Source: Acidobacteriota bacterium (lineage in GTDB: Bacteria > Bacteroidota > Ignavibacteria > UBA10030 > UBA8401). Taken from it: a stretch of DNA of 64,000 nt. The DNA is taken from assembly GCA_050258555.1 (NCBI GenBank), contig JBLMZA010000043.1:2372-66371 (forward strand). Reading direction: 5' to 3'. The translations under genes and the position numbers were made by a program. The notes beneath the pieces are model-generated. The model saw only the letters and a list, made by a program, of their open reading frames with translations, did no database searches and was not told the DNA's origin. Shown here piece after piece: positions 9,324 through 59,709 of this stretch. Within the stretch, counting starts at the first letter, position 1, and each line of letters begins with the position of its first letter.

Positions 9324-9513
9324 AGAAGTACGTCGTGATGCGTGTGAGAGAATGAATAATACGGGTATGGATTAATTAACAAAAAAAGCCGGGTGAAGTC
9401 AATAGGAAAGGCCCCGGAACGGATAAATTGCCTGTTTTAGCGCATTTACGGCGATTATTTGCATTTCAACTTCAGTCTCCGTACATTGGCAGGAACAATT
9501 ACGGAACCCCTCT

Positions 9514-9966
9514 GTGGAACACCTGACTGTACGAATTTCTCCCGAAGCGCCGCACGGCGCCGGCCTTCCTCTTCCGCGCTACGCCACCGAGGGATCGGCG
9601 GGCATGGATGTGCTCGCCGCCGTGACGGAACCGGTCGAAATTCCGCCCGGAACCACCGCGCTCATTCCCGCGGGATTCTCCATCGAGCTGCCTCCGGGAT
9701 TCGAAGCGCAGATCCGTCCGCGCTCCGGACTCGCCTTGAAATCGAACATCGGCATTCTCAATGCACCCGGCACCATCGATTCGGATTACCGGGGCGAAGT
9801 GAAGATCATTCTCACGAATTTCGGCCGCTCGGCATTCACGGTGAATCGCGGCGACCGCATCGCTCAGATGGTTGTTGCGCGCCACGCACGCGTCGAATGG
9901 GTCGTGAGCGGGAAGCTCGACGACACCGCGCGGGGGGCGGGCGGCTTCGGCCACACCGGCGTCTGA
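9514..9966 (+). CDS. dut: dUTP diphosphatase
   Basis: All five dUTPase motifs are present ([43 protein letters not shown]). GTG start. Confidence 0.9.
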
Positions 9967-10006
9967 CCGTGCGGCGGCTGCATCTCAACAACCGGAACAC
10001 ACCATT

Positions 10007-11275: not shown

Positions 11276-11281
11276 TCAGCC

Positions 11282-11965
11282 ATGGAAACAACAGGAGTAT
11301 TGTATCTTGTCGCCACGCCGATCGGCAACTATGCCGATATCACATTCAGAGCCGTCGAGGTCCTGAAGGCTGTCGACGTCGTCGTCTATGAAGAGCGGAA
11401 GGAGGGCAGCCGGCTTTTGCGCCATCTCGGCATCGAGAAGCCGGTGGAAAGCCTGAACGAGCATAACGAACAGGCGGCGACGTTTCATATTCTCGACTTT
11501 CTGAAGTCGGGAAAAAATGTCGCGGTGATTTCCGATTGCGGCACGCCGGTGTTCTCCGATCCCGGACAGATGCTTGTGCGCAAGGCGGTCGAGCTCAAGA
11601 TCAAGGTGGTGCCGATTCCGGGCGCCTCGTCGCTGATGCCGGCGCTTACCGTGTCCGGATTCTCCATCGACCAGTTCGTGTACTACGGCTGGCTTTCTCC
11701 GAAGCGGCCGCGGCGCCTTGCCGAACTCGAACAGCTCCGGCGCGAGCGGCGGACGATCGTGCTGATGGATACGCCGTACCGGCTGCTGCCGCTGCTGAAG
11801 GACATTGCGGACGTCTTCGGGAGCGAACGCCGTATCTGCGTCGCGTTCGATCTGACACTGCCGGGCGAGGAGATTTTCCACGGCACCGCGCCCTCGCTCT
11901 ATAAAAAACTCTCGAGCGAAGAACGCAAGGGCGAGTTCGTCGTGGTGATCGACAAAATGAAATAA
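11282..11965 (+). CDS. rsmI: 16S rRNA (cytidine1402-2'-O)-methyltransferase RsmI
   Basis: LYLVATPIGNYADIT N-terminus and tetrapyrrole-methylase fold motifs (VVYEE, ISDCGTP.SDPG, PIPGASSL). Confidence 0.9.
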   Translation: METTGVLYLVATPIGNYADITFRAVEVLKAVDVVVYEERKEGSRLLRHLGIEKPVESLNEHNEQAATFHILDFLKSGKNVAVISDCGTPVFSDPGQMLVRKAVELKIKVVPIPGASSLMPALTVSGFSIDQFVYYGWLSPKRPRRLAELEQLRRERRTIVLMDTPYRLLPLLKDIADVFGSERRICVAFDLTLPGEEIFHGTAPSLYKKLSSEERKGEFVVVIDKMK

Positions 11966-12025
11966 TCGTTTTGCGTATGGAATGCGGATGTTGCGTTCAC
12001 TGTTCCTTTTGCGTATTATAAATGT

Positions 12026-13054
12026 ATGCTTCTTTCGCGACATATCGACAGCGACCGCAGGGCCCCCGAACTCTACGGCAACTATTGGTTTAACAGCCGT
12101 CCGCTGACGCTGCGGGCGATGCAGGGCGATGTGGTGCTCCTGTTCTTCTGGGATCATGCATCGGCGGCGTCGCTGCGCGTGCTCCGGCATATCAACCGCA
12201 TGCATGAAGAATACGGCCCGATGGGCCTGCGCATCATCGGCGTGCAGGTGGCCGACTACGCCGTCGTCCGCGATCCCGCGAAAAAAGAATCCATCATCGC
12301 TTCCTACAACATCCGGTTTCCCATCGTCGCCGACGACGAACGCCGCATCGCCGACTCGTACCGCGTGGATACGATGCCGACGGCCTGCCTGATCGCGCCG
12401 AACGGCGATATCTATGACATGCAGGTGCCGAAGGGTTCCGCCTCGCGCGTCGAACGCTCGGTCCAGTATCTGCTGCGTCAGGCGGGATATTTCGGCGAGC
12501 TTCCCTTCGTGGAATACCGGGACGATCAGTACAGGGATTATTCGCCCGGTGTCGTCACGCCCGATTTCGATCTCGGCTATCTGCGCGGGTCGCTCGGCAA
12601 CAGCGAGGGCTACAGTCCCGAACTGCCCGCCGAATATCACGATCCCGGATACCACATCGAGGGAAAGTTCTATGCCGAGGGCATCTGGACCGCCGGAAGG
12701 CGTTCGTTCGAATATGCGGGCACAGACAACGGATACATTCTCTTTCCCTATACGGGGTACGATCTTGCCATTGTCTCGGGCAATGAACGGCAGACCGATA
12801 CGGTGCGCGTGCTGATGGACGAGCGCCCGGTCGATGCAGCGATCAGAGGATCAGATATTTTTGTTGATGACAACGGCAATACCATGGTGAAAACAAACAT
12901 CCTTCGGTCGGTTCACCTCATCAGCAGCGAAGCGGCAGCCAGCCACATCATCAAGCTTCTTCCATCGCGGCAGGGCACGGCATTTTACGGCGTCTCGTTC
13001 ATTCCGTTCGATCCCGAATGGAGCCCGCGCCGTGCGCACTTCAGCGCGAATTAA
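12026..13054 (+). CDS. Thioredoxin-fold (TlpA/redoxin-like) protein with a degenerate active site and a C-terminal extension
   Basis: The N-terminal 150 aa follow the TlpA/ResA pattern (VLLFFW...IIGV...FPIVADD...MPT..LI..NG.I), but the WCxxC site reads WDHASAAS, with no cysteines. A C-terminal domain of about 180 aa has unknown function. Confidence 0.55.
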   Translation: MLLSRHIDSDRRAPELYGNYWFNSRPLTLRAMQGDVVLLFFWDHASAASLRVLRHINRMHEEYGPMGLRIIGVQVADYAVVRDPAKKESIIASYNIRFPIVADDERRIADSYRVDTMPTACLIAPNGDIYDMQVPKGSASRVERSVQYLLRQAGYFGELPFVEYRDDQYRDYSPGVVTPDFDLGYLRGSLGNSEGYSPELPAEYHDPGYHIEGKFYAEGIWTAGRRSFEYAGTDNGYILFPYTGYDLAIVSGNERQTDTVRVLMDERPVDAAIRGSDIFVDDNGNTMVKTNILRSVHLISSEAAASHIIKLLPSRQGTAFYGVSFIPFDPEWSPRRAHFSAN

Positions 13055-13205
13055 ACCGACGGCACAGGGTGGGCGGTTCTTCCGCCAGCCGACACACGAT
13101 TATTCGTTATCGACATCAACGGCCCGCGACATCGACAGTCGGAAACGCGGGATGAATGCGGCGCACTGCCGCAATTTTTATTTCATGGACACAGGAAAAA
13201 CGCAC

Positions 13206-14147
13206 ATGGCGATCAACACCAGAATCACGGAACTTTTTGGGATCGAATATCCTTTGAATGCAGCAGGAATGGTATGGGTGTCAGGATGGAAGCTTGCCGC
13301 CGCCGTCTCGAATGCGGGCGGACTCGGACTGATCGGCGCCGGCTCGATGAAGCCCGACCTTCTGCGTGAACATATCCGGAAGATCAAATCGGCAACGACA
13401 AAGCCCTGGGGCGTCAACCTTCCGCTTACGCGCGGCGATGTCGAGGAGCTGCTTGCCGTCATCTTCGATGAAGGAGTCAGGATCATCTTCACCTCTTCCG
13501 GAAATCCCGCCGTGTTCGCTCCCAGGCTGAAGGAAAAAGGCATGACCGTTGTGCACGTCGTGGCCGCCGTGAAGCACGCCCGGAAGGCCGAGGCCGCCGG
13601 ATGCGACGCCGTCGTGGCCGAAGGCTTCGAAGCCGGAGGACATAACGGATTCGACGAGATCACGACGCTTGCGCTTGTGCCGCAGGTTGTGGACGCCGTG
13701 ACGATACCGGTGATCGCCGCCGGCGGCATCGCCGACGGACGACAGATGCTGGCCTGCATGGCGCTCGGCGCCGAAGGCGTGCAGATCGGCACGGCATTCG
13801 CCGCCACGGCGGAATCGTCCGCGCACGAACGCTACAAGCAGTCGATCATCGAGGCCGACGACGGCGCGACGGTGCTCACGATGAAAAAAGTTTCCCCGCT
13901 GCGCATGCTCAAGACTCCGTTCGCGCTGAAGGTGATGGAAGCCGAAGCCGCAGGAAGATCTAAAGAGGAGCTGCGCGAACTCAACGGCAAGGGCCGCGAG
14001 CGCATGGGCATCTTCGAAGGAAACTGGGAGGAAGGGGAATTCGAAATGGGACAGAGCTCCGGACTCGTCAAGGAAATTCTTCCGGCCTGCGAACTCGTCC
14101 GCCGGTTCATCCGGGAATATGAGGACGCGAAAAAGAACATCGCCTGA
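13206..14147 (+). CDS. fabK: Enoyl-ACP reductase II FabK / nitronate monooxygenase family flavoprotein
   Basis: MAINTRITELFGIEYPLNAAGMVWVSGWKLAAAVSNAGGLGLIGAGS...AEGFEAGGH...VIAAGGIADG, the typical FabK/NMO TIM barrel. Start chosen at M59 of the track ORF (AGGAAAAA 6 nt upstream); the upstream extension is non-homologous. Confidence 0.8.
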   Translation: MAINTRITELFGIEYPLNAAGMVWVSGWKLAAAVSNAGGLGLIGAGSMKPDLLREHIRKIKSATTKPWGVNLPLTRGDVEELLAVIFDEGVRIIFTSSGNPAVFAPRLKEKGMTVVHVVAAVKHARKAEAAGCDAVVAEGFEAGGHNGFDEITTLALVPQVVDAVTIPVIAAGGIADGRQMLACMALGAEGVQIGTAFAATAESSAHERYKQSIIEADDGATVLTMKKVSPLRMLKTPFALKVMEAEAAGRSKEELRELNGKGRERMGIFEGNWEEGEFEMGQSSGLVKEILPACELVRRFIREYEDAKKNIA

Positions 14148-20396: not shown

Positions 20397-21341
20397 ATGG
20401 AACCACAGCATCGCAATGTCATCATCATCGGATCGGGACCGGCAGGACTCACCGCGGGCATTTATACGGGACGCGCGAACCTTTCACCGCTGATCTTCGA
20501 AGGCATGCAGCCCGGAGGACAGCTCACAATCACCACCGAAGTCGAGAATTATCCCGGATTTCCGAACGGCATCATGGGACCGGAAATGATGGAAACCATG
20601 CGCGCGCAGGCGCTGAAATTCGGCGCGGAGTCGATGTTCAAAGAAGTCACCTCCGTCGATTTCTCGAAGCGTCCGTTTGAGATCGTCGCCGATGAGCAGC
20701 TCTATACGGCATCGGCCGTCATCGTCGCCACCGGCGCCTCGGCCAAGCTGCTCAACATTCCTTCGGAAGCCGAATACATGGGCTACGGCGTGAGCGCCTG
20801 CGCCACATGCGACGGATTCTTCTATCGGGGCAAGGAAGTGTTCGTGGTCGGCGGCGGGGACACCGCGCTGGAGGAAGCCACGTTCCTGACGCGCTTCGCA
20901 TCGAAAGTGACCGTGATCCACCGCCGCGACGAATTCCGCGCATCGAAGATCATGCAGGAGCGCGCTCTCAAGAATCCGAAGGTTTCCGTGCTCTGGGATA
21001 CCGCCGTCGACGAAGTGCTGGGGAAGAAGGAAGACGGCCGGAAATTCGTGACGGGATTGAAATTGAAGCATACGAAGACCCATGCAATAACGGAAGTCGC
21101 AGCCGACGGTCTTTTTATCGCCATCGGCCATCAGCCGAATACGAAGCTCTTCCGCGGCATGCTCGACATGGATGAGAAGGAGTATCTGAAGGTGCAGCCG
21201 GGTTCGACACGCACGAATATTCCGGGCGTGTTCGCCGCCGGCGATGTCGCCGATTCGGTCTACCGGCAGGCGGTCACCGCGGCCGGCTCGGGCTGCATGG
21301 CGGCCATCGACGCCGAACGATATCTTGAAACCATGGATTGA
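20397..21341 (+). CDS. trxB: Thioredoxin-disulfide reductase TrxB
   Basis: GSGPAG FAD motif, redox-active CATC, GGGDTA NADPH motif and C-terminal GDV.D. Confidence 0.9.
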   Translation: MEPQHRNVIIIGSGPAGLTAGIYTGRANLSPLIFEGMQPGGQLTITTEVENYPGFPNGIMGPEMMETMRAQALKFGAESMFKEVTSVDFSKRPFEIVADEQLYTASAVIVATGASAKLLNIPSEAEYMGYGVSACATCDGFFYRGKEVFVVGGGDTALEEATFLTRFASKVTVIHRRDEFRASKIMQERALKNPKVSVLWDTAVDEVLGKKEDGRKFVTGLKLKHTKTHAITEVAADGLFIAIGHQPNTKLFRGMLDMDEKEYLKVQPGSTRTNIPGVFAAGDVADSVYRQAVTAAGSGCMAAIDAERYLETMD

Positions 21342-21585: not shown

Positions 21586-21651
21586 AAAGTATATAGCGTG
21601 AACGACAACGAAGACAACCACCATCAAAAAGATCAACAGAGGAGGAAAGCC

Positions 21652-22086
21652 ATGTTAGTACGATTCCAATCCGCCCCGATTCCACAGTCGCCGCTGGAAC
21701 TGCTCTTCGACCGCGGAACGATGTTCCCCGATTTGTTCTGGCAGCCGCTTGAAGCGCGCACGAATGCGTTCCCGTATGTGAACATTGCGGACATGAACGA
21801 CACGATCCATGTGGTCGCAGAGATCCCCGGCGTGCCGAAGAGCGACATCAACATCCACCTGCAGAACGATGTGCTCACGATCAGCGGCGAGAGGAAGCGG
21901 CCCGAGGAGAAACCCGAGGCTGCGCATGTGCGGCGCGAGATCCGGTATGGACAGTTTGAACGCTCATTCAAGCTGCCGTACGAAGTGGATGCGTCGAAAG
22001 TGACGGCCGAATACAGCGACGGCGTGCTTCGCATACAGCTTCCGAAGACCGAAGCGGCGAAGCCGAGGTCGATCGATATCAAGTAA
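21652..22086 (+). CDS. Hsp20/alpha-crystallin family small heat-shock protein
   Basis: Alpha-crystallin domain (DMNDTIHVVAEIPGVPKSDINIHLQNDVLTISGERK...GQFERSFKLP...AEYSDGVLRIQLPK). GGAGGA Shine-Dalgarno 6 nt upstream. Start is M19 of the track ORF. Confidence 0.85.
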   Translation: MLVRFQSAPIPQSPLELLFDRGTMFPDLFWQPLEARTNAFPYVNIADMNDTIHVVAEIPGVPKSDINIHLQNDVLTISGERKRPEEKPEAAHVRREIRYGQFERSFKLPYEVDASKVTAEYSDGVLRIQLPKTEAAKPRSIDIK

Positions 22087-22120
22087 GCAACTGAATCGGA
22101 TTGTGAAAGGAGAAATGATT

Positions 22121-22474
22121 ATGGAACAGAATCAAACCAGACCGGCGGCCCGGCGCGTCGTGCCGGCAGCCGATATCCAGGAACTGCCTCAGTCGTATAT
22201 TGTGCGCATGGACATGCCCGGCGCATCGCGCGATGCGATCAAGGCGCAGATCGAGGAAGGCGTGCTGACCGTTGAAGTGACGGTCGATCCCTACTTCGCG
22301 AAGGACGCCACGCTGCTCGTGGACGATTCGCTGCCGATCGAATATCATCGCAAATTTTCACTGGCCGAGGACGTCGACCAGCAGGCCGTCGATGCGGCCT
22401 ACGACCTTGGTGTGCTGACCATCACGCTCAACAAGAAGCAGCATTTTCTGCCGCGCCAGATCTCGATCCAGTAA
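22121..22474 (+). CDS. Hsp20 family protein (divergent)
   Basis: Alpha-crystallin-like core (YIVRMDMPGASRDAIKAQIEEGVLTVEV...FSLAEDVD...YDLGVLTITL); AAGGAG Shine-Dalgarno 8 nt upstream of ATG 22121. Confidence 0.75.
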   Translation: MEQNQTRPAARRVVPAADIQELPQSYIVRMDMPGASRDAIKAQIEEGVLTVEVTVDPYFAKDATLLVDDSLPIEYHRKFSLAEDVDQQAVDAAYDLGVLTITLNKKQHFLPRQISIQ

Positions 22475-22529: not shown

Positions 22530-23021
22530 ATGGCACTCATGAAGCGCAATCCGTCGTCTGAGCTGGATGTGTGGAACCGCGACTTCCCGGTCGCGCGGAG
22601 TCTCCATTCCTTCCAGCGCGAAATGAACCGCATGCTTGACAATTTCTTCCGCGAAGACCTGTTCGAGGAAGGCCGTTTCGGCGGCGTCCAGGAATTCGCG
22701 CCGGCGGTCGACATCTCGGAAACGAAGGATGCCTATGTGATCAAGGCAGAGCTTCCCGGCATGAAGAAAGAGGATGTGAAGGTGACGATGAACAACAACA
22801 TCGTGACGATTTCCGGCGAGAAGAAAATCGAAGAGGAGAAGCGGGAGGGAAGCTACTATCGCATGGAGCGCTCGTTCGGTTCGTTCGAGCGTTCGATCGC
22901 CATTCCGGGTCCGGTCAAGCCGGATGACATCGAATGCAAGTACGTGGACGGCCTGCTGACTGTGTCGCTTCCGAAAACGGAAGAGGCGAAGCAGCGGGTG
23001 ATCGATGTGAAGGTGAAATAA
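22530..23021 (+). CDS. Hsp20/alpha-crystallin family small heat-shock protein
   Basis: DISETKDAYVIKAELPGMKKEDVKVTMNNNIVTISGEKK...YRMERSFGSFERSIAIP...YVDGLLTVSLPK; AAGGAGGA Shine-Dalgarno. Confidence 0.9.
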   Translation: MALMKRNPSSELDVWNRDFPVARSLHSFQREMNRMLDNFFREDLFEEGRFGGVQEFAPAVDISETKDAYVIKAELPGMKKEDVKVTMNNNIVTISGEKKIEEEKREGSYYRMERSFGSFERSIAIPGPVKPDDIECKYVDGLLTVSLPKTEEAKQRVIDVKVK

Positions 23022-23457: not shown

Positions 23458-23486
23458 TTGACAGGAAGAAGAAAATTTGCTATAAT
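23458..23486 (+). promoter_or_regulatory. Consensus sigma70-type promoter of the TetR gene
   Basis: TTGACA-17 bp-TATAAT, a perfect consensus, 35 bp upstream of the TetR start. Confidence 0.65.
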
Positions 23487-23510
23487 GAATAGTGAATCAT
23501 TATTCATTAT
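23482..23510. promoter_or_regulatory. Palindromic operator overlapping the -10 (putative TetR autoregulatory site)
   Basis: Perfect 9-bp inverted repeat ATAATGAAT-N11-ATTCATTAT, with an inner TGAAT-N4-ATTCA. Confidence 0.5.
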
Positions 23511-23520
23511 AGGCTTGCCC

Positions 23521-24126
23521 ATGCGAACTCTCGATGCCAACAAACGGAATGCGATTCTCAACGCGGCGACGTCCGTCATCGCTGAAGACGGATTTCACGG
23601 CGCGAAAATCGCGAAGATCGCCGAACGCGCCGGCGTCGCCACTGGCAGCATCTACCGCTACTATCCCAACAAGGAAGCGATCATCGTCGTGATCCTCGAG
23701 CAGCTCTGGGAAAACCTCGCGCGGGAGGTCCGGCTGCTCATTCCGCGCACAGACATCCATCCGGTCGAGAAGCTCGACATGGTCGTCGATCTTGTCTTCG
23801 ACATCTTCACTGCCAACACCTCGCTCGCCACGATCTTCGTGAACGAACACCATCAGTTCCTGGTCCGGGAGGTCGGAAAGCTGCGCCTCTTCTACGACAG
23901 CTTCCTCGATTCGGCCGAGGAGATCGTCCGGGAGGGCGTGCACAGGCATGTCTTCAACGCCAACGTCGATATCAAGATCTTCCGTCATTTCATCATCGGA
24001 GCGTTCCGGCACATCCTGCAGCAGTGGACGCTGGACCCCGAAACATTCCCCCTCAACAAAGTGCGGCAGAATCTGAAGTTCATCATCAAGAACGGAATTT
24101 TGCAGCATGGCAGTGCAAAAAAGTGA
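23521..24126 (+). CDS. TetR/AcrR family transcriptional regulator
   Basis: N-terminal HTH (RNAILNAATSVIAEDGFHGAKIAKIAERAGVATGSIYRYYPNKEA) and helical ligand-binding domain. Confidence 0.85.
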   Translation: MRTLDANKRNAILNAATSVIAEDGFHGAKIAKIAERAGVATGSIYRYYPNKEAIIVVILEQLWENLAREVRLLIPRTDIHPVEKLDMVVDLVFDIFTANTSLATIFVNEHHQFLVREVGKLRLFYDSFLDSAEEIVREGVHRHVFNANVDIKIFRHFIIGAFRHILQQWTLDPETFPLNKVRQNLKFIIKNGILQHGSAKK

Positions 24127-24131
24127 CCGCC

Positions 24132-25643
24132 ATGAAGAACCCTACGGAACAACCATCCATGACAATCAGGACTGTCCGGCGCCGCATGACGCTCTGGACG
24201 GCCGCGGCGCTGTGCCTGCCGGCCATGTTGTGCGCGCAGACACTCACGCTCGATGCGGCCGTGCAGACGGCGCTGGCAAAGAACGAACGCATCAGCCAGT
24301 ATGAAGAACGGCTGAAACAGAAGGAGTACGGAAACCGCGAGGCCTGGGGCAACTTCCTGCCTTCGCTGAATTTTACGGCAAGCTACACGCATCTGAAGGA
24401 GCCGATGAAGATCGATCTGGAGCCGGTGCGTCAGGCGATCATCACGATGCAGGCCGGAACGCAGACCGAGTTCGCAAACGTCTACAGCATGATGCAGGGG
24501 CGTCCGGCGCTGACTCAGGCGCAGCGCGACGCACTGAATGCGCAGAACTTCAAGGCGCTCGACGCCAGGCTGCCCTTGTTCGTCGAGGAGATGAAGAAAC
24601 AGGATTATAAGACGGGAACCTTCGTTGCCACGCAGCCTCTTTTTCTCGGAGGCAAGCTCCTGGCCGCCAGGCAGTACGCAGCCTCCGAGATGCGGTCGGC
24701 CGGCATCGAGCTCGAGCGCGCAAAAAACGAGATCGTCCAGGAGGCCCTCGTCAATTACCTTGCCGTCGTGCTCATGACCGATGTGGTCCGGACGCGCGAG
24801 GATGTTCTTGCGGGTATGAATCGACATGATACACAGGCAAAGAAGCTCTTCGCCGAAGGACTCATCGCCAATCATCAGGTCATGCGCGCCGAAGTGGCCG
24901 TGGCCGACGCCGAGCGCAACCTGATCGATGACCGGAACCGGCTCGAGCTTGCGCGCATCGCGCTGCGCGCCACGCTCGGACTGCCGTCCGACGCGCCGGT
25001 CGAGGTGTTGGAAACGCTCTCGTACCGTCGGACCGGCGACACGCTCGAGGCCTGCGAGGCGCAGGCGCTCGTGCGCAATCCCGTGATGCAGGTGCTCGCC
25101 GAGAAGCGCGAGGCGGCATCGGCCAACTACAATCTCCAGCGCTCCGAATTCCTGCCGCAGATCGCCGCCTTCGGCAAGTACGAGGTGTACCCCCAATATC
25201 TCTCCATCCTCGAGCCGCGCTGGGCCGTCGGCGTCCAATTGAGCATGAACCTCTTCAGCGGAATGAAGAAATATGCGAAGCTCGAATCGGCCTCGCATCT
25301 CGAGCGCGAAGTGGAATATCTCGAAGCCGACACGAAAAAGAAAATCGGCCTGCTTGTCAACAAGGACTACCGCGAGCTCGACAACGCCCGAAGCCGCTAT
25401 GAACGCCTGAAGAAAAACATCCGTCTTTCGGAGGAGAACCTGCGCCTGATGAGGAACCGGTTCGAAACCGGGCTCGGCACGTCGCTCGATGTGATCGACG
25501 CGGAACTCGTGCTCGAGAAGAATCTCATCGAAAGCAAGACCTCGCTGTTCGACTACTACAAGGCGATGGCCGATTTGTACACCGCCGTGGGCGAACCGGA
25601 AAAATTTCTGTCCATCTGGAATGCAAAAGGAGAAGAGCAATGA
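24132..25643 (+). CDS. TolC-like outer membrane efflux protein (OEP family)
   Basis: Signal peptide followed by two OEP repeats with coiled-coil character. Alternative starts are at 24159 and 24186. Confidence 0.75.
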   Translation: MKNPTEQPSMTIRTVRRRMTLWTAAALCLPAMLCAQTLTLDAAVQTALAKNERISQYEERLKQKEYGNREAWGNFLPSLNFTASYTHLKEPMKIDLEPVRQAIITMQAGTQTEFANVYSMMQGRPALTQAQRDALNAQNFKALDARLPLFVEEMKKQDYKTGTFVATQPLFLGGKLLAARQYAASEMRSAGIELERAKNEIVQEALVNYLAVVLMTDVVRTREDVLAGMNRHDTQAKKLFAEGLIANHQVMRAEVAVADAERNLIDDRNRLELARIALRATLGLPSDAPVEVLETLSYRRTGDTLEACEAQALVRNPVMQVLAEKREAASANYNLQRSEFLPQIAAFGKYEVYPQYLSILEPRWAVGVQLSMNLFSGMKKYAKLESASHLEREVEYLEADTKKKIGLLVNKDYRELDNARSRYERLKKNIRLSEENLRLMRNRFETGLGTSLDVIDAELVLEKNLIESKTSLFDYYKAMADLYTAVGEPEKFLSIWNAKGEEQ

Positions 25644-26632
25644 AATTCAGAAAACAGACGGCCGTTCTCGCCGTCCCCGCCGTTATTGCCGTCGTATCGC
25701 TTGCCGTGCTGTTGGTGAAAGCCGCCGCCCCCGACGAAATTGTGATCACAGGCCAGGCCGAGGCCTCTGAGATCGATGTTGCCTCGAAAATCCCCGGCCG
25801 CATCGATACGGTCTATGTGAAGGAAGGCGATACGGTGGTGAAGGGCCAGCTCCTGGCGCTGCTTGAAAGCAAGGAGATCGCCGCGAAAGTCGGGCAGGCC
25901 AAGGGAGCCATGGAAGCGGCCCGCGCCAGAATGATGATGGCCGAACACGGCGCTCGTCCCGAGGAAAAGGAAGGGGCAAAGAAACTGTACGAGCAGGCGA
26001 AGTCGCAGTTCGAACTCGCCCAGAAGACCTGGAAGCGCGTCGAGAAGGTCTACCGCGACAGCCTCATCAGCACGCAGGAGCGCGATCAGGCCGAATTCCA
26101 GTTCAAGGCTGCACGCGACCAGATGGACGCCGCAAAGGCACGGTATGATATGGCGCTGCATGGCGCGCGTGCCGAGGAGATCGACGGCGCGCGCTCGCTG
26201 TTCCATCAGGCCGAGAACGCCTACAACGAGGCGCTTGCCTACGACAGCGAAACGCACATCGTGAGCCGGATGAATGGCGAAGTCACCAAGCGGATCGTCG
26301 ATGCCGGGGAGATGGCCGCCGGAGGCTACCCGATCTTCACGATCATGGACCCGTCCGATGTCTGGGTGGTGATCCAGGTGCGCGAAGACCAGCTCGGCGG
26401 CATCCGCAAAGGCCAGACGCTGGAGGCCCGGATTCCCGCACTGAACAATGAGCGGTTCGCTTTCGAAGTCTCGGCCCTGGCGGCGATGGCCGATTATGCC
26501 TCATGGCGTCCGACGAAGCAGAAGGGGGAATACGACCTCAAGACATTCGAAGTGCGCCTGCGTCCGAAAGCGCCGATTCCGGGACTTCGTCCCGGCATGT
26601 CCGTCAATGTTGCGCTGGCAGGAAGGTCATGA
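25640..26632 (+). CDS. HlyD-family membrane fusion protein
   Basis: N-terminal transmembrane helix, biotin-lipoyl-like hairpin (YVKEGDTVVKGQLLALLE), long coiled coil and beta-barrel. ATGA overlap with the upstream gene. Confidence 0.85.
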   Translation: MKFRKQTAVLAVPAVIAVVSLAVLLVKAAAPDEIVITGQAEASEIDVASKIPGRIDTVYVKEGDTVVKGQLLALLESKEIAAKVGQAKGAMEAARARMMMAEHGARPEEKEGAKKLYEQAKSQFELAQKTWKRVEKVYRDSLISTQERDQAEFQFKAARDQMDAAKARYDMALHGARAEEIDGARSLFHQAENAYNEALAYDSETHIVSRMNGEVTKRIVDAGEMAAGGYPIFTIMDPSDVWVVIQVREDQLGGIRKGQTLEARIPALNNERFAFEVSALAAMADYASWRPTKQKGEYDLKTFEVRLRPKAPIPGLRPGMSVNVALAGRS

Positions 26633-27828
26633 GCACGCCATTCGTCATGCCGCTGTTGCGTGTGATGCGCCGGGAGTTCCGGCGGATTGCCGGGCGGCCC
26701 ACGCTCTGGATGCTGTCGATCGGACTTCCGGTCGGCATGTTTCTCTTCCTTGCCTACATCTATAAGGACGCGCTGGTGCGCGAGCTTCCCGTGGCCGTCT
26801 GCGATGAAGACGGTTCGGAGCTCTCGCGCATGATCATCCGTTCTGTCGACGCCACCGCGTCGATGAAGGTCGTCATGCGCGCACACTCGATGAACGAGAT
26901 CCGGGAGGCGATGCTGGCCGGAAACGTACAGGCCGGCATTTACATCCCGCGCCGGTTCGAAGCGGACGTGAAAGGCGGGACGAGCTCGACCGTCACGGTC
27001 GTCAAGAACACGTTCAACCTGATCATCGGCAATCTCATCTACCGCGATGCTGCGACGATCCTGAAGACCGTCTCCGGCGGAGCGCTGCTCAAGAAGCTGC
27101 GTTCACGCGGCATGAGCGGGGAGCAGGCGATGAATGTCATCAATCCGATCCGCCTCGATACGCAGGTGCTCTACAATTCGAATTACAGCTATCTGAATTA
27201 TCTCATCCCGCCCATGCTCGCCGTCGTGCTGCAGATGGTCATCATGGTCTCGGGCGTGCTGGTGTTCAGTTCCGAATTCACGCATGGAACCATGGACGAG
27301 CTGCTTGAAACCGGAAACAACAGCCTGGCGGCCGTGCTCCTCGGCAAGGCGCTTCCGCATTTTCTCGTGCATGCCTCGACGGCGCTCGGCATCATCGGAC
27401 TGGTCATGCCGATATTCGGACTCGGCATCGGCGGATCCTCCGCGCTTGTCTTCGGGCTGCTGCTTCTGTTCGTCGCGGCGTCGCTTGCCCTGGCGCTTGC
27501 GATCTCGGGCGTCGTGCATGAGCAGCTGAAGGCGACCGAAGTCGCGGTCTTCCTCGTGACGCCGGCATTCGTCTTCAGCGGACTCACGTTTCCGGCATGG
27601 GCGATGCCTGCGCTGCATTCATGGTATGCGCAGACGATGCCCTTCACGCCGTTTCTGTCCGCATTTCTGAAACTGTATCAGATGAATACCCCGGTCACAT
27701 ACATCGCTCCCGAAGCGCTTCACCTTTCGGCATTCCTCATCCTTTCAACGGCCGTGGCAATCGTGTCGCTGCGGCGGCAGATCCATCGGCATATTACATC
27801 GCGCATGGGAACGGAGGCCTCGTCATGA
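26629..27828 (+). CDS. ABC-2 type transporter permease (YhhJ-like)
   Basis: N-terminal transmembrane helix, large periplasmic loop and six C-terminal transmembrane helices (ABC2_membrane_3). ATGA overlap. Confidence 0.8.
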   Translation: MSTPFVMPLLRVMRREFRRIAGRPTLWMLSIGLPVGMFLFLAYIYKDALVRELPVAVCDEDGSELSRMIIRSVDATASMKVVMRAHSMNEIREAMLAGNVQAGIYIPRRFEADVKGGTSSTVTVVKNTFNLIIGNLIYRDAATILKTVSGGALLKKLRSRGMSGEQAMNVINPIRLDTQVLYNSNYSYLNYLIPPMLAVVLQMVIMVSGVLVFSSEFTHGTMDELLETGNNSLAAVLLGKALPHFLVHASTALGIIGLVMPIFGLGIGGSSALVFGLLLLFVAASLALALAISGVVHEQLKATEVAVFLVTPAFVFSGLTFPAWAMPALHSWYAQTMPFTPFLSAFLKLYQMNTPVTYIAPEALHLSAFLILSTAVAIVSLRRQIHRHITSRMGTEASS

Positions 27829-29003
27829 AACAGCGCATCAGAGGATACGTCGAGGTCATCCTCCGCGAAGCCCGCTCGCTCATCGGCGACGTCAACATCC
27901 GCATGATCGTGCTGGTGGCGCCGCTGCTGTATCCGCTTCTCTACGGCACGGTCTATTGGCACAAGACCGAGGCCGATGTGCCCATCGTCGTGGTGGACGG
28001 GGACCATTCGGCGCTCTCGCGTCAGTTCATCCGCGATCTCGATGCGCACCAGCTGATCCGCGTGGCGGAGGTCACGGCCGATGCGGGCCAGGCGCAGGAC
28101 CGGCTCTACCGGATGGATGCGCAGGGCATCGTCATTATTCCTTCGGGCTTTTCACGATCGCTCCTGAAGGCGGAAGGCGCCGATGTGAAGGTGCTTCTCA
28201 ACACGACGAAGTTCCTTCCCTCCAATGACCTCAACAAGGCGATCACCGCCGTCGCCATGAGCCGGGCCGCGGACATGCGCGTGAAGTTTCTGCGCATGGC
28301 GGGCTTCAGCAGGAAGCAGGCGGAGGAGGCGGCGGATCCGGTGCGCGACGATATCCGTCCCATGTTCAACGTGACGGAAACCTACGGAGACTTTCTCATT
28401 CCCGGCATCTTCATTCTCATACTCCAGCAGACGCTGCTCATCGGACTTTCGGAAAGCGTCGCCAGGGAGCGCGAGGAAGGGACGCTGCCCGAGCTGTTGC
28501 GGACTGCAAACGGAAGCGTCACGGCCGCCGTGTGGGGCAAGGGGGGGATCTACCTCGCGCTCTATGCGTCGTATGCACTTTTTTATGCCGCGGTGTACTT
28601 CCGGCTCTTCTCGCTTCCGATTGCCGGCAGCGCTTCGGCGCTCGCCGTTGCCACCGTACTCTTTCTGATCTCGGTCGTGTACATCAGCATCTTCGTTTCC
28701 TCCTTCTTCACGCGCAAGATCCTCGCGCTGCAGACGATCACATTCACCACATATCCCATCTTCTTCATTTCCGGCTACAGTTGGCCGGCCGAAGCGCTTC
28801 CGCTGCCTCTGCAATGGCTCACGCAGCTCTTGCCGAGCACGCAGTATTTCACCGCCGCCGTTCGCATCATGCAGATGGATGCGGGGTGGAAGGAAACGGC
28901 GCCGGAACTCCTCCGGCTTGCCGCGCTTGCCGCCGCAGGCTTCGTGGTCACGCGCATGCGCATGCGAACACTGCTTCGGCGTGCAGACTTGAACGCCGGA
29001 TAA
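27825..29003 (+). CDS. ABC-2 type transporter permease (YhhJ-like), second paralog
   Basis: Same architecture as the previous gene. ATGA overlap; GGAGG Shine-Dalgarno. Confidence 0.8.
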   Translation: MKQRIRGYVEVILREARSLIGDVNIRMIVLVAPLLYPLLYGTVYWHKTEADVPIVVVDGDHSALSRQFIRDLDAHQLIRVAEVTADAGQAQDRLYRMDAQGIVIIPSGFSRSLLKAEGADVKVLLNTTKFLPSNDLNKAITAVAMSRAADMRVKFLRMAGFSRKQAEEAADPVRDDIRPMFNVTETYGDFLIPGIFILILQQTLLIGLSESVAREREEGTLPELLRTANGSVTAAVWGKGGIYLALYASYALFYAAVYFRLFSLPIAGSASALAVATVLFLISVVYISIFVSSFFTRKILALQTITFTTYPIFFISGYSWPAEALPLPLQWLTQLLPSTQYFTAAVRIMQMDAGWKETAPELLRLAALAAAGFVVTRMRMRTLLRRADLNAG

Positions 29004-29064
29004 TTATTTCCTACATTAGGTTTTCTATCCTGCAGCGCAGAAGCACACGAAGACTATCCAGAAA

Positions 29065-31218
29065 ATGTCACGAAAAATCAAGATCGGCATCGATGTCGGC
29101 GGAACGTTCACACACGCCGTTGCGGTGGATATTGCCCACTTCGGCATTGTCGGGAAGGCGGTTGTTCCCACTTCCCACAGCGCCAAAGAAGGCGTCGCCC
29201 GCGGCGTCGTCGAGTCGATGCAGAAGCTGCTCGAGACCGCACACATCCATCCGGACGAAGTCATTCTCATTGCGCACAGCACCACACAGGCAACGAACGC
29301 GCTGCTTGAAGGCGACGTTGCGCCGGTGGGCATCATCGGCATGGGGACGGGACTGGAAGGCCGGAGGGCGAAAAACGAGACGAACACGAACCGGATTGAG
29401 CTTGCGCCGGGCAAGTTCGCGAAGACCTGTCATCGCTTTCTTGATACGGGCAGACGCTTCGACGATGAGACGATACGCCGGACGATCACGGAACTCATGA
29501 ATGACGGTGCGCAGGTGATCGTGGCCAGCGAGGCCTTCGGCGTCGATCATCCCGAATCGGAGCAGCGCGTGGTGAAGGCGGCATCGGCCATGGGCATACT
29601 TGCCACGTCCGCTTCCGAGATTTCGCAGCTCTACGGACTCCGCATCCGCACGCGCACGGCCGTGATCAATGCGAGCATGATGCCGAAGATGCTCGAAACG
29701 GCGAACATGACGGAGGATTCGGTGCGCAAAAGCGGCATCAACGCGCCGCTGATGGTGATGCGCAGCGACGGCGGCATCATGGACATCAATGAAATGCGCC
29801 GCCGTCCCATACTCACCATGCTCTCGGGACCCGCCGCCGGCGTCGCCGCGGCGCTGATGTACATTAAAATTTCGGACGGCATCTTTCTCGAAGTCGGCGG
29901 CACCTCGACCGACATCTCGATCATCAAGAACGGCAAGCCCATCATCCGCACGGCGGAGATCGGAGGCAACAAGCTCTTCGTGCGCACGCTCGACGTCCGC
30001 ACGATCGGCGTGGCAGGCGGCTCGATGCTGCGCCTGCATAAGGGGAAGGTCGTCGATGTGGGACCGCGTTCGGCGCATATTGCGGGATTGAAGTACGCGA
30101 CATTTTTTGCGCCCGATGAAGTACCCCCGGTTGAATCCCTTTCGCTTGCATCCATGACGCCGCGCGAGGGCGACCCCGACGATTACGTTGGCATAGCGGT
30201 CAACGGAGGAGCTCCTTCGATCGCCGTGACGCCGACCGGCGCGGTGAATGTGCTCGGCATCGCGCAGGGCTACAGCAAGGCCAAGTCGGAATTCGTGCAC
30301 AGGATCTTCGGCTGGCTTGCCTCGCATATCGGCACGACGCCCGAGAAGCTCGCGACCGAAATTCAGGAAGTCTGCGCCGCCAAGAACAAGGAGGTCATCG
30401 ATGCGATCATCGACGAGTACAAGCTCGACAAATCGCTCCTGACGCTCGTCGGCGGCGGAGGAGGCGCCGAGGCGATCGTGCCATACACGGCAAAGGTGAT
30501 GGGCATGAAGCACACGATTGCCGAGAATGCCGAAGTGATTTCCGCCATCGGCATCGCCCTGGGCATCATCCGCGATACGATCGAACGCACGATCATCAAT
30601 CCCACGGAGCAGGATCTTCTGCTCATCCGGAAGGAAGCGATGGAGCGCATCCAGCGCATGGGCGCGATCCCCGAAACGATCGAAGTGACGATCGATGTCG
30701 ACCGACAGACGAAGCGCGTGACGGCGGTCGCCACCGGCTCGTCCGAGCTTCGCACGCGCGACATCATGTCGAAGCCGAAGACGGACGACGAGCTGAAGGC
30801 GATCTCCGCCGCCTCGATCGGATCGAATCATGTCGAGCTCAAAGGCCGCGCAGGCGTGCTCCGCGTGTTTCAGGGACGCCGTGAGGAGACGCGTCTTTTC
30901 GGACTGTCGAAGAAGACGACGCACCCGCTTCGCGTGATCGACGAGGACGGCATCGTCCGGCTGCAGCTTGCGCACGGCGAGGTGAGAGCGACGACCGTCG
31001 GCCTGGTGACCGGAACGCTCCGGGCCCTGCTCGACGAGTTCACGTCGTACGGCGATGCGGGCGGACTCCTGCCCGATGTGTTCATCATCGCCTCCGGCCG
31101 CGTCATCGATCTGACGGGGCTGGTCATGAAAGATCAGATCCTCTCGATGGCGCAGGCCGAGACGGAAAAGATTTCCAACGACGAGCCATGCATCATCATC
31201 GGATCGAAGAAGAAGTAG
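29065..31218 (+). CDS. Hydantoinase/oxoprolinase (HyuA-like) family protein
   Basis: Hydantoinase_A N-terminal ASKHA fold (KIGIDVGGTFTHAV, EVGGTSTDISII). 717 aa, with no HyuB partner nearby. Confidence 0.75.
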   Translation: MSRKIKIGIDVGGTFTHAVAVDIAHFGIVGKAVVPTSHSAKEGVARGVVESMQKLLETAHIHPDEVILIAHSTTQATNALLEGDVAPVGIIGMGTGLEGRRAKNETNTNRIELAPGKFAKTCHRFLDTGRRFDDETIRRTITELMNDGAQVIVASEAFGVDHPESEQRVVKAASAMGILATSASEISQLYGLRIRTRTAVINASMMPKMLETANMTEDSVRKSGINAPLMVMRSDGGIMDINEMRRRPILTMLSGPAAGVAAALMYIKISDGIFLEVGGTSTDISIIKNGKPIIRTAEIGGNKLFVRTLDVRTIGVAGGSMLRLHKGKVVDVGPRSAHIAGLKYATFFAPDEVPPVESLSLASMTPREGDPDDYVGIAVNGGAPSIAVTPTGAVNVLGIAQGYSKAKSEFVHRIFGWLASHIGTTPEKLATEIQEVCAAKNKEVIDAIIDEYKLDKSLLTLVGGGGGAEAIVPYTAKVMGMKHTIAENAEVISAIGIALGIIRDTIERTIINPTEQDLLLIRKEAMERIQRMGAIPETIEVTIDVDRQTKRVTAVATGSSELRTRDIMSKPKTDDELKAISAASIGSNHVELKGRAGVLRVFQGRREETRLFGLSKKTTHPLRVIDEDGIVRLQLAHGEVRATTVGLVTGTLRALLDEFTSYGDAGGLLPDVFIIASGRVIDLTGLVMKDQILSMAQAETEKISNDEPCIIIGSKKK

Positions 31219-31290
31219 GCGCTGTTCACGCGCGGCTCAGCACTCGTGTCCGCGCGCATTTCATCACACACACAGGTCAATGTGGATCAT

Positions 31291-33195
31291 ATGAGAAAAC
31301 TGCTTTCACTGCTGTTGTTCGGATTCATGCTGTATAACGGAACGGCATCGGCCGCCGAAGAGCTGCGCGGCGCATGGCTGTCGAGAAATGAAGTGGTGAC
31401 GCGCGCGAAGATCGCGGAAGTGATGGATTCGCTTGCCAACAACAATTTCAACGTTGCCTATGTCAACTGCTGGAGCCGCGGTTATACGCTGTTTCCCAGC
31501 GAAACGATGAAGAAGCATACGGGCGTGGAGATCGATCCCGCATATGTCGGACGCGACGTGCTGGCCGAAGCGATTGCCGAAGGCCATCGCCGCGGCATCG
31601 AGGTGGAAGCATGGTTCGAATACGGATTCGTGGGCGGCTATACCGGCTATTATCCCGGTTCGGGCGGCCGCGGGAAGATCTTCGATGCGCATCCCGACTG
31701 GGTGGCAAAGAAAGTGGACGGCACCGAGAAAGACAACTCAAACTTTTATTGGATGGTTGCGACGCGACCCGATGTGCGGCAGTTCATGGTCGATCTGCAT
31801 GTGGAGGTGGCAAGGAAGTACGACATCGACGGCATCGAGCTCGACCGCATCCGCTACGCGGGCAATGTCTACGGATACGATGCCTATACCGACAGCGTGT
31901 ATATGGCGCGCTACGGCGTGCATCCTCCGACCGACGTGGCCGATGCGCAGTGGATGCGGTTCCGCGCCGACATCCTGAACGGCTTCATGCGCACGGTCTA
32001 CGACTCGATCAAAGCCGTCAATCCGAATGTGTTCGTGACGAATGCGCCGGGATTTTATTCCTCATCGTCCTATCAGTCGTACAACGACAACCTGCAGGAC
32101 TGGTGGCAGTGGCTCGCCGCCGGTTCGGTCGATCACGTGCAGGTGCAGATGTATGTCGGCTCGAACAGCTCGCTCAAGAGCTATCTGAATTATCTGTTCG
32201 CCAATGTGCCGCAGAAGGAGAAAATGATTCCGGCTATCGCCACCTCGCCCAACGGCAACGCCATTGCCGAGAGCGAACTCATGAACATGGTCACGACTAC
32301 GCGTTCGCTCGGACTGAAGGGCAACGCCTGGTGGTACTACGGCGACATGGCGCCCTATTGGAATTTCTACCGCACGCAGGCGTATCCGACGCCCGCCGCA
32401 GTGCCGGGACGCTCATACACATGGCGCACGCCGGCTGTGATCGTCAATGAGACGGACAGCGCGCTCGTCACATACACCGGCAAGTGGCTCACGGCTCCGG
32501 CATCGGTGCCCGGCTATAAAGGCACATCGCTCTATGCCGATTCGATCGGCGTGAATGCGATCGAGTACCGTGCGGCCGTTCCGGCAGGCGGATGGTATGA
32601 AGTCTATGCCTACCAGGCAACGCAGGCATTCCGGACGATGCAGGCGCCGTTCGATCTGTATGATTCGAGCGGTGCAGCACGGCGCGTGCTCATCGATCAG
32701 ACCAACGACAAGCTCAAAGGCTGGTATAAGCTCGGCGATGTGTATCTGAAGAGCGGCGTGCGGAAAGTCGTGCGTCTTTCAAACGACAATATCGGCGGCG
32801 GCCGCAACGGCTATGTGTCGGCCGATGCGGTGATGCTGGTGCTCAATCGCCGGCTGAGTCCCGGCGCACGGCTGACGGAGGTGCCGCACGGAAATTTTAC
32901 CGATCCCCAGCCAGGTAAGTTCTGGCTGGGGCAGAATTTCCCGAATCCGTTCAATCCGTCCACAACGGTGTCCTTCGCCTTGAAAAGCGCCGCCGCGGTG
33001 CGTCTGTCGGTCTTCGATGTGCTGGGACGCGAATGCGCGGTGCTCATCGACGGCATGCGTCCGGCAGGGATGCAGACGGTCGAATGGAATGCCGGCGCGA
33101 TGCCGAGCGGCGTCTACTTCTGCCGCCTGCAAGTGTCGGCGCCGGGGGCAGGTGCGGCGTTTGCGGAAACGAAGAAGTTGCTTTTGCAGAAATAA
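31291..33195 (+). CDS. Secreted glycoside-hydrolase-like (GHL10/DUF4015-type) protein with a T9SS C-terminal sorting domain
   Basis: Signal peptide. TIM-barrel-like N-terminal region (LRGAWLSRNEVV...NFNVAYVNCWSRGYTLFPSE...EVEAWFEYGF). C-terminal LGQNFPNPFNPSTTVSF...SGVYFCRL...KKLLLQK. Confidence 0.7.
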   Translation: MRKLLSLLLFGFMLYNGTASAAEELRGAWLSRNEVVTRAKIAEVMDSLANNNFNVAYVNCWSRGYTLFPSETMKKHTGVEIDPAYVGRDVLAEAIAEGHRRGIEVEAWFEYGFVGGYTGYYPGSGGRGKIFDAHPDWVAKKVDGTEKDNSNFYWMVATRPDVRQFMVDLHVEVARKYDIDGIELDRIRYAGNVYGYDAYTDSVYMARYGVHPPTDVADAQWMRFRADILNGFMRTVYDSIKAVNPNVFVTNAPGFYSSSSYQSYNDNLQDWWQWLAAGSVDHVQVQMYVGSNSSLKSYLNYLFANVPQKEKMIPAIATSPNGNAIAESELMNMVTTTRSLGLKGNAWWYYGDMAPYWNFYRTQAYPTPAAVPGRSYTWRTPAVIVNETDSALVTYTGKWLTAPASVPGYKGTSLYADSIGVNAIEYRAAVPAGGWYEVYAYQATQAFRTMQAPFDLYDSSGAARRVLIDQTNDKLKGWYKLGDVYLKSGVRKVVRLSNDNIGGGRNGYVSADAVMLVLNRRLSPGARLTEVPHGNFTDPQPGKFWLGQNFPNPFNPSTTVSFALKSAAAVRLSVFDVLGRECAVLIDGMRPAGMQTVEWNAGAMPSGVYFCRLQVSAPGAGAAFAETKKLLLQK

Positions 33196-59688: not shown

Positions 59689-59709
59689 CATCAGAAAGGA
59701 TCTCACGTC

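Follow-up and report, generated by a model that had tools for sequence, protein, structure and literature searches.

The window analyzed here, a 64-kb (64,000-nucleotide) stretch of contig JBLMZA010000043.1 from a genome of the class Ignavibacteria, contains a putatively self-regulated, five-gene operon for an efflux pump of the ATP-binding cassette (ABC) type that has no ATPase gene nearby. The missing ATPase is a family trait and not an accident of this genome, as it was invariant in about 93 loci (80 close relatives, 10 more distant ones and three plasmid records) from at least eight phyla. All five genes lie on the forward strand and encode, in order, a FadR/YsiA-like TetR-family repressor (tetR, 23521 to 24126; Pfam TetR_N, 3e-15; TetR_C_4, 6e-8), a TolC-family outer-membrane factor (OEP, 24132 to 25643, or from an alternative GTG start at 24123; Pfam OEP, 5e-45, two repeats), a membrane fusion protein (MFP, 25640 to 26632; HlyD_D23, 2e-21, and HlyD_3) that is a YbhG-type periplasmic adaptor with an N-terminal membrane anchor, permease 1 (P1, 26629 to 27828, 399 residues; ABC2_membrane_3, 1.3e-42, residues 26 to 378) and its paralogue permease 2 (P2, 27825 to 29003, 392 residues; ABC2_membrane_3, 5e-53, residues 28 to 375). 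These coordinates and Pfam domains agree with the gene content (TetR, TolC-type protein, MFP and two ABC-2 permeases) given in a preliminary description of the locus, which had also reported ATGA start/stop overlaps at every junction. Upon inspection, all five open reading frames (ORFs) were intact and the overlap was found at three of the four junctions (OEP/HlyD, HlyD/P1 and P1/P2), but not between tetR and OEP, where a 5-nt spacer separates the TGA (24124 to 24126) from the ATG (24132) and a GTGA overlap arises only with the GTG start at 24123. Judged from the sequence, translational coupling of the four structural genes is well supported.

To locate an ATPase, the window was searched with a six-frame scan for Walker A and signature motifs and with an iterated hidden Markov model (HMM) of the nucleotide-binding domain (NBD), which as a positive control recovered Escherichia coli YbhF and RbbA at 256 to 282 bits. 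A single NBD was identified in the 64 kb, at about 58349 to 59017 and 29 kb from the operon. Because CcmB- and CcmC-like ORFs directly follow, this NBD was assigned to CcmA, the only ABC ATPase in the window, within a ccmA-ccmB-ccmC-like haem-export cluster (58349 to 60420, forward strand). Pfam ABC_tran was absent from the five operon proteins. The ABC2_membrane_3 match spans nearly all of P1 and P2, leaving no room for a cryptic NBD, and the operon is central in the window, where the inspection extended >20 kb to either side of it, so a partner gene is not concealed just past an edge. The earlier claims that no NBD gene lies in or beside the operon and that both permeases lack one were therefore upheld, as neither an NBD gene just beyond the edge of the operon nor a cryptic domain within a permease was found, and no energizing partner for P1 and P2 was identified in the window. 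In terms of MFP-dependent ABC-2 exporters, the operon has the YbhG/YhiI-type adaptor gene adjoining the permeases and lacks the cognate NBD (PF00005), either fused or in the same operon.

To establish how widespread this layout is among close relatives, one genome per GTDB species was scanned, yielding 80 loci mostly from Ignavibacteria, Melioribacteraceae and Bacteroidota metagenome-assembled genomes, with some from Zixibacteria, Calditrichia and Spirochaetota. The nearest loci (L001 to L003) shared 68 to 74% identity with P2, and none of the representative GTDB genomes exceeded 74%. Where the contig permitted, nearly all 80 loci kept the TetR-OEP-MFP-P1-P2 order, while L025, L037, L053 and L064 had HlyD-P1-P2 or P1-P2 only. 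A P1 orthologue occupied the same position in 77 related loci, 73 of which were sufficiently full-length to align. No NBD gene was detected by HMM in the operon of any of the 80 loci, in agreement with the Pfam-annotated context in Zixibacteria. All 15 NBD ORFs recorded within ±10 kb (14 in the loci plus CcmA) were either fused to a membrane domain or located beside their own permease with multiple transmembrane (TM) helices. Across the close and distant loci, the NBDs considered and rejected as partners were that of L051 (MacB/FtsX system), those of L004, L005, L027 and L056 (NatAB-like), those of L079 (ABC_membrane fusions), that of Dyella (an ABC-F protein) and that of L092 (MalK-like); the MacB/FtsX system, a NatAB-like pair and the ABC_membrane fusions were confirmed with Pfam. 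L051 also carries a second complete ABC efflux cluster (8007 to 13657, minus strand), convergent to the NBD-less operon and comprising a TetR, a 372-residue protein of unknown type, an NBD, two FtsX/MacB-type permeases and a LolA-like protein; by HMM only, a similar TetR-then-NBD arrangement lies downstream in L012 and L040, and the same NBD with its neighbours was seen in L043.

To evaluate the wider family, 1.84 billion cluster representatives were searched, returning 4866 relatives (396 at E ≤1e-30), of which the best 150 were analyzed. All 150 were matched far better by the P1/P2 HMMs than by YbhR, YbhS, YhhJ or RbbA of E. coli, and neither their lengths nor their match patterns suggested an NBD fusion. 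A profile search seeded with distant representatives was followed by ten context look-ups that included cultured organisms, and the NBD-less module was present in all ten (among them Firmicutes, Flavobacteriia, Chitinophaga and Dyella). Three layouts were observed: TetR-MFP-one permease in Kyrpidia, Aneurinibacillus and a related metagenomic contig; an optional TetR followed by OEP-MFP-one permease in Elizabethkingia, Chitinophaga and three metagenomic contigs; and OEP-MFP-two permeases in Dyella and L092. The module was also found on three plasmid records (Agrobacterium, Bacteroides finegoldii and Riemerella anatipestifer). The copy on the Agrobacterium conjugative plasmid adjoins an integrase and an IS110 element. 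In R. anatipestifer, a MarR-TolC-MFP-single ABC-2 permease cassette (L098, NZ_CP073240.1, 5672 to 9632) lies between tet(X4) and lnu(I) on pRCAD0416RA-1, a complete 37-kb multidrug-resistance plasmid on which the cassette is surrounded by tet(X), lnu(I), blaOXA and ere(D). No NBD was found on the whole of this plasmid by annotation or HMM. The paper describing pRCAD0416RA-1 makes no mention of the permease cassette, which may be an unrecognized mobile efflux determinant. In total, the family spans Ignavibacteria, Zixibacteria, Calditrichia, Spirochaetota, Firmicutes, Flavobacteriia, Chitinophagia and Proteobacteria, plus plasmids. The preliminary description had proposed a comparison with ATPase-less operons of Bacteroidota/Chlorobi-type genomes; homologous operons do occur in Bacteroidota-type genomes, but are restricted neither to these groups nor to the genome studied here.

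P1 and P2 share 26% identity (E = 7e-42). Pfam, AlphaFold2 (AF2) and Foldseek results were consistent with the six TM helices of ABC2_membrane_3 proteins and a large periplasmic domain between TM1 and TM2, which measures ~140 residues in P1. The AF2 model of P2 (pLDDT 81) comprises an N-terminal helix, TM1, a ~140-residue periplasmic domain, TM2, a short helix (residues 221 to 227) and TM3 to TM6 with re-entrant helices, and the predicted layout is that of a type V ABC membrane domain. The top match of this model in the PDB by Foldseek was the ceramide exporter ABCH-9C of Tribolium (E = 2e-10, TM-score 0.62), over about 410 alignment columns, so that the match takes in the P2 periplasmic domain. 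ABCA7, ABCA1, ABCA3 and ABCG transporters followed, and a PDB sequence search agreed. These best structural matches are exporters of lipids or amphiphiles with a type V fold but, in contrast to P2, are eukaryotic, carry fused NBDs and have no adaptor or outer-membrane partner, and sequence identity to them was ≤16%. Membership of the permeases in the YhgE/Pip family was rejected, as the only match was that of P2 to TIGR03061 at 16 bits against a cut-off of 96. About 20 of the best 150 representatives were tandem fusions of two permease domains (740 to 813 residues; examples are P0127, P0156, P0169, P0202, P0221, P0255, P0259 and L071, 8783 to 11161), and the eight that were scanned with Pfam each had two ABC2_membrane_3 domains and no ABC_tran. 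Such natural single-polypeptide fusions (a “Rosetta-stone” argument) support the pairing of P1 and P2 in one heterodimer. P1 and P2 would pair as a heterodimeric membrane domain of type V, each with a large periplasmic domain. The YbhG-type adaptor would link this dimer to the TolC-type channel, and lipophilic compounds would leave the inner membrane or the periplasm through the assembly for the cell exterior.

Two groups of conserved residues bear on how this dimer might work. First, an N-terminal “RE” motif and an “E-x-E-x-G” motif after TM2 are present in P1, P2 and every distant relative that lacks an NBD, and are also found in the NBD-dependent YbhR, YbhS, YhhJ and RbbA; by analogy with other type V transporters, these regions would correspond to the NBD-contacting connecting helix and the coupling-helix region. 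Alternatively, the motifs may be intramolecular salt-bridge partners, as in ABCG2, in which case their retention would be no proof of an NBD. Second, the NBD-less family has a polar signature of its own, formed by [Q/H]201-Q202-T203 and Q303 in P2, by Q202 and T303-E304 in P1 and by LQQV and ATQ in single-permease relatives. Within it, Q202-T203 is invariant in P2, where K/R-E-R-E follows TM2, whereas the family-conserved positions of P1 are Q202, T303-E304 and a motif S-S-E-F-x-H-x-T after TM2. The Q-Q-T/V of TM2 and the A-T-Q of TM5 are missing from the E. coli paralogs when counted by alignment columns (YbhR carries a QQ[VT] string, located in its periplasmic domain). A membrane-embedded carboxylate that could serve as a proton relay and is conserved family-wide was not found in the alignment of the NBD-less family, as E304 of P1 is clade-specific, being Q in P2 and single-permease relatives and S in Dyella.

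One of the closest characterized systems is CecR(YbiH)-YbhG-YbhF-YbhS-YbhR of E. coli, with which the locus shares a TetR-family regulator at the head of the operon, a YbhG-type adaptor and two paralogous ABC2_membrane_3 permeases with large periplasmic domains and “RE” and “ARERExGT” motifs. The OEP translation has an N-terminal signal-like segment which, together with its two OEP repeats, marks it as a TolC-family protein (TIGR01844, 2.4e-32; 112 bits, under the subfamily cut-off of 225). The top NCBIfam match of the adaptor was the YbhG model PRK03598 (2e-37, under the equivalog cut-off), its full-length identity to E. coli YbhG by BLAST was 23% over 304 residues (E = 2e-17), and Pfam HH_YBHG is present in its homologues. 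However, the adaptor and permease genes of E. coli are separated by ybhF, which encodes a tandem NBD and has no counterpart in the operon of the window, and the E. coli TolC gene lies at another site, whereas the outer-membrane factor of the window is encoded in cis. P1 and P2 are only 18 to 20% identical to YbhR and YbhS, in which the TM2 Q-Q-T and TM5 T-Q/E signatures are missing; the E. coli proteins scored ≤96 bits against members of the P1/P2 family, compared to >210 bits for the family's own HMMs; and the TetR of the window is not orthologous to CecR (E = 0.01). The YhiI-RbbA-YhhJ system is likewise similar in having an adaptor and two ABC-2 membrane domains, and the permease region of RbbA was the top named NCBIfam match of P1 (4e-25) and P2 (1e-22), far under the 1050-bit cut-off. 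RbbA has two fused NBDs and P1 and P2 have none, which bears out the contrast with E. coli drawn in the preliminary description, with the addition that YbhF is a separate gene inside ybhGFSR. The locus is related to both E. coli systems and resembles them in its workings, but it lacks the NBD, fused or in cis, that defines them, and by sequence it falls in a separate, much larger family, an NBD-less branch of adaptor-dependent ABC-2 exporters.

A lack of ATPase genes in operons of this kind has been noticed before. The Helicobacter pylori operon HP1489-HP1486 (OEP, MFP and two ABC-2 permeases) has no ATPase gene, and its authors state that the ATPase “presumably is present at a different locus”, with orphan HP0853 as the candidate because the Helicobacter anseris operon includes an ATPase of which HP0853 is the ortholog (PMC9570263). 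Deletion of the H. pylori system destabilized the sheathed flagellum, and no drug-efflux phenotype was reported there (PMC9570263). Likened by gene content alone, this operon has the same four structural gene types as the one described here and shares its lack of an ATPase, but it has no TetR and is associated with the stability of the flagellum and its sheath; an NBD-bearing relative of the H. anseris kind was absent among the ~93 loci inspected. The remark on H. pylori was the only statement that we found in the literature on the energization of NBD-less ABC-2/MFP operons. BT3902-04 of Bacteroides thetaiotaomicron and PG0091-94 of Porphyromonas gingivalis have the right architecture and appear in published tables without comment, while in the accessible part of a review of tripartite systems YbhG, YhiI and RbbA are unmentioned and YbhFSR is confined to a passing paragraph (PMC8277102). 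The bile-salt pump BT2792-BT2795 of B. thetaiotaomicron was considered as an experimental homologue and rejected, as it has a single inner-membrane component plus a regulator.

Promoter and regulator provide further indications of how the pump is controlled and what it may carry. A sigma-70-type promoter (TTGACA-17 nt-TATAAT with an extended -10 TG; 12/12 consensus matches; 23458 to 23486, forward strand) lies 35 nt 5′ of the tetR ATG and is the sole perfect match between 23000 and 29400. Its -10 element is overlapped by a palindromic operator candidate (CTATAATGAATAGTGA / TCATTATTCATTATAG; 23480 to 23512), whose 16-nt arms are 94% complementary around a 1-nt spacer. This palindrome occurs once in the window (0 matches expected by chance); the same palindrome is kept 5′ of tetR in L001 to L003 and L009, and related half-sites are found in L007, L012 and L018. 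The promoter and the overlapping, conserved palindrome together correspond to the textbook arrangement of a TetR efflux operon under autorepression, and with a TetR_N regulator adjoining the pump genes the operon is predicted to be TetR-repressed. An ATPase co-regulated through the same operator, which had been suggested as a way to the missing partner, received no support in the window, as a search for a second operator copy found none. TetR matched the NCBIfam FadR model NF053878 at 1.4e-31 (109.8 bits, under the cut-off of 200), and its best solved relatives, matched over its full length in the PDB at E values of ~1e-20, were Bacillus subtilis FadR/YsiA (3whb and 1vi0, about 3e-19) and the regulators 5gpa and 5gp9. 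From the likeness to the acyl-CoA-sensing Bacillus FadR we infer a lipophilic inducer and substrate, and the fatty-acid or acyl-CoA class is the probable one. The FadR-like repressor would bind the palindrome overlapping its own promoter and would be released from it by an amphipathic ligand, for which a long-chain acyl-CoA or a molecule resembling a fatty acid is the probable candidate. In L088 (10461 to 15678) and L094 (10959 to 14649), on the minus strand, a beta-oxidation cluster of acyl-CoA dehydrogenase, 3-hydroxyacyl-CoA dehydrogenase, enoyl-CoA hydratase and thioesterase lies 1.5 to 3 kb downstream of a Firmicute-type TetR-MFP-permease module. These neighbours may fit a fatty-acid-related substrate or inducer, or may be there by coincidence.

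As to how the pump is powered, the explanation that we tentatively favor, at slightly less than even confidence, is that the P1-P2 dimer draws its power from an ABC ATPase whose gene lies at an unlinked locus of the same genome, whether dedicated to the pump or shared. “Orphan” ABC permeases have usually been resolved by unlinked or shared NBDs, as for LptB, GldA, MsiK/MsmX and energy-coupling factor (ECF) modules. LptB/LptFG, GldA/GldFG, MsiK/MsmX and ECF systems resemble the operon in the window in that their membrane parts are encoded apart from the NBD, but their ATPases are known, and in the present family the unlinking holds across many phyla and plasmids. An ATPase acting on P1-P2 from a distant locus would have its precedents in LptB/LptFG, GldA/GldFG, MsiK/MsmX and the arrangement presumed for H. 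pylori HP1489-HP1486. We favor this reading because the “RE” and “E-x-E-x-G” motifs are retained as in NBD-dependent paralogs, because no family-wide intramembrane carboxylate for proton coupling was found, and because of the HP0853 precedent in H. pylori and H. anseris (PMC9570263).

Several observations weigh against an ATPase in trans. A free NBD gene was found within ±8 to 10 kb in none of the ~93 loci from at least eight phyla, and such consistent unlinking is unusual, all the more so with Firmicutes included, as the ABC operons of Firmicutes are expected to be compact. The presence of the NBD-less module on Riemerella and Agrobacterium plasmids suggests self-sufficiency. Among the best 150 representatives, about 20 fusions between membrane domains contrast with 0 fusions to an NBD. 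The family has its own polar signature (TM2 Q-Q-T/V and TM5 A-T-Q) that the E. coli paralogs lack, and no candidate partner ATPase was found in the 64-kb window. Finally, the N-terminal helix was less conserved in P1 and P2 (area under the curve, 0.36 to 0.37; P about 0.03) than in the YbhR family (0.51), and the coupling loop followed the same trend (0.42 to 0.45 versus 0.59), in a comparison based on YbhR as the one control family and on sets of very different divergence depth (~86% conserved versus ~56%). This contrast hints weakly at relaxation of the interface with the NBD and, given a single control at very different divergence, no conclusion was built on it.

Most of these observations can be read in favor of a module that works without any ATPase, P1-P2 being either driven by an ion gradient or an equilibrative conduit for lipophilic molecules from the outer leaflet into the adaptor/TolC tunnel, which we regard as possible but somewhat doubtful. 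Such a module would be a tripartite pump of a new energetic class, with an ABC fold as its base. The absence of an NBD gene in cis extends to Gram-positives, the plasmid copies include a complete multidrug-resistance plasmid free of any NBD, and membrane-domain fusions are frequent where NBD fusions are wanting; polar residues of TM2 (Q201/Q202/T203) and TM5 (Q303; T303-E304 in P1) are conserved in the family and absent in NBD-dependent E. coli paralogs; and the N-terminal helix and coupling loop are comparatively relaxed relative to the YbhR control. In addition, proton-coupled efflux by the E. coli relative was not excluded by the authors of a study of YbhFSR, on weak evidence (PMC7190983); the claim of Na+/H+ antiport by YbhFSR is also weak, depending on YbhF overexpression (PMC7190983). 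On the other hand, the whole NBD-less family shares no ionizable intramembrane residue that we could find (E304 of P1 is confined to its clade), the cytoplasmic motifs of NBD-dependent relatives are retained, and the conservation contrast stands on one control family of very different divergence depth. We know of no type V ABC membrane domain that transports without an NBD. The H. anseris operon likewise indicates an ATPase (PMC9570263). With similar reserve, and leaning toward doubt, P1-P2 and their relatives could represent a large undescribed class of NBD-free exporters, tripartite (bipartite in Gram-positives), that combine a type V domain with a YbhG-type adaptor and either use an ion gradient or let lipids or amphiphiles follow a gradient of their own, with transport perhaps passing through the polar cluster of Q-Q-T (TM2) and T-Q/E (TM5).

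It is unlikely that the complex serves chiefly in envelope structure or lipid homeostasis, as an envelope-spanning device that might deliver or remove outer-membrane lipid, with energy-dependent pumping not its main task. The flagellar phenotype of the H. pylori deletion (PMC9570263), the lipid exporters among the closest solved folds (ABCH-9C for ceramide, ABCA1 and ABCA7), a regulator resembling an acyl-CoA sensor and the beta-oxidation genes near the Firmicute-type modules L088 and L094 all point in this direction. However, detoxifying efflux pumps typically have such an inducible, TetR-repressed layout, the Riemerella copy of the module is found amid the resistance genes of a multidrug-resistance plasmid, and the genomic contexts of the module vary, with no linkage to envelope biogenesis genes seen. 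The possibility that the ATPase gene is missing through an artefact or through recent decay (a gap in the assembly, loss in this lineage, a cryptic NBD or one just outside the region) is refuted by the mid-window position of the operon, the full coverage of P1 and P2 by the membrane-domain model, the intact and translationally coupled ORFs and the recurrence of the architecture across 80 genomes, one per species, and at 13 further loci that are more distant or plasmid-borne.

An ATPase is the defining feature of ABC exporters, yet this large, multi-phylum family of adaptor-linked ABC-2 permeases never has one in cis. Its members either draw on shared or unlinked ATPases, as a hidden case on a large scale, or are transporters of ABC fold that have switched to another energy source. 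Either answer alters how the very common “ABC transporter permease” genes are annotated and how they are counted in resistome surveys, and the module on the tet(X)-bearing Riemerella plasmid may be an unrecognized mobile resistance determinant. Both the regulator, with its likeness to FadR, and the fold, with its likeness to lipid exporters, point to fatty acids and other amphiphiles as candidate substrates. If ATP independence were true, an ABC fold would have been recruited to transport that needs no ATP, and resistance plasmids could spread such self-contained cassettes.

None of the genes flanking the operon is transport-related. Directly upstream are three tandem HSP20/alpha-crystallin genes (21598 to 22086, 22103 to 22474 and 22530 to 23021, forward strand), themselves preceded by a thioredoxin-reductase-like gene (pyridine-nucleotide disulphide oxidoreductase; 20397 to 21341). 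Downstream of P2 are a hydantoinase/oxoprolinase gene (29065 to 31218) and a GHL10 protein (31246 to 33195, forward strand) predicted by a Por_Secre_tail Pfam match to be sorted by type IX secretion (T9SS). Sorting signals of this kind assign the organism to the Bacteroidota/Ignavibacteria (FCB) group, in line with L001 to L003 as its nearest loci. The 61 nt between the P2 stop and the hydantoinase gene (29004 to 29064) contain no terminator-like hairpin, and read-through from P2 into the latter gene is possible; the gene 3′ of P2 differs in the other relatives inspected by Pfam. Upstream of ccmA, a secreted-looking protein (56760 to 58352, forward strand) has a C terminus that, judged by eye, is T9SS-like.

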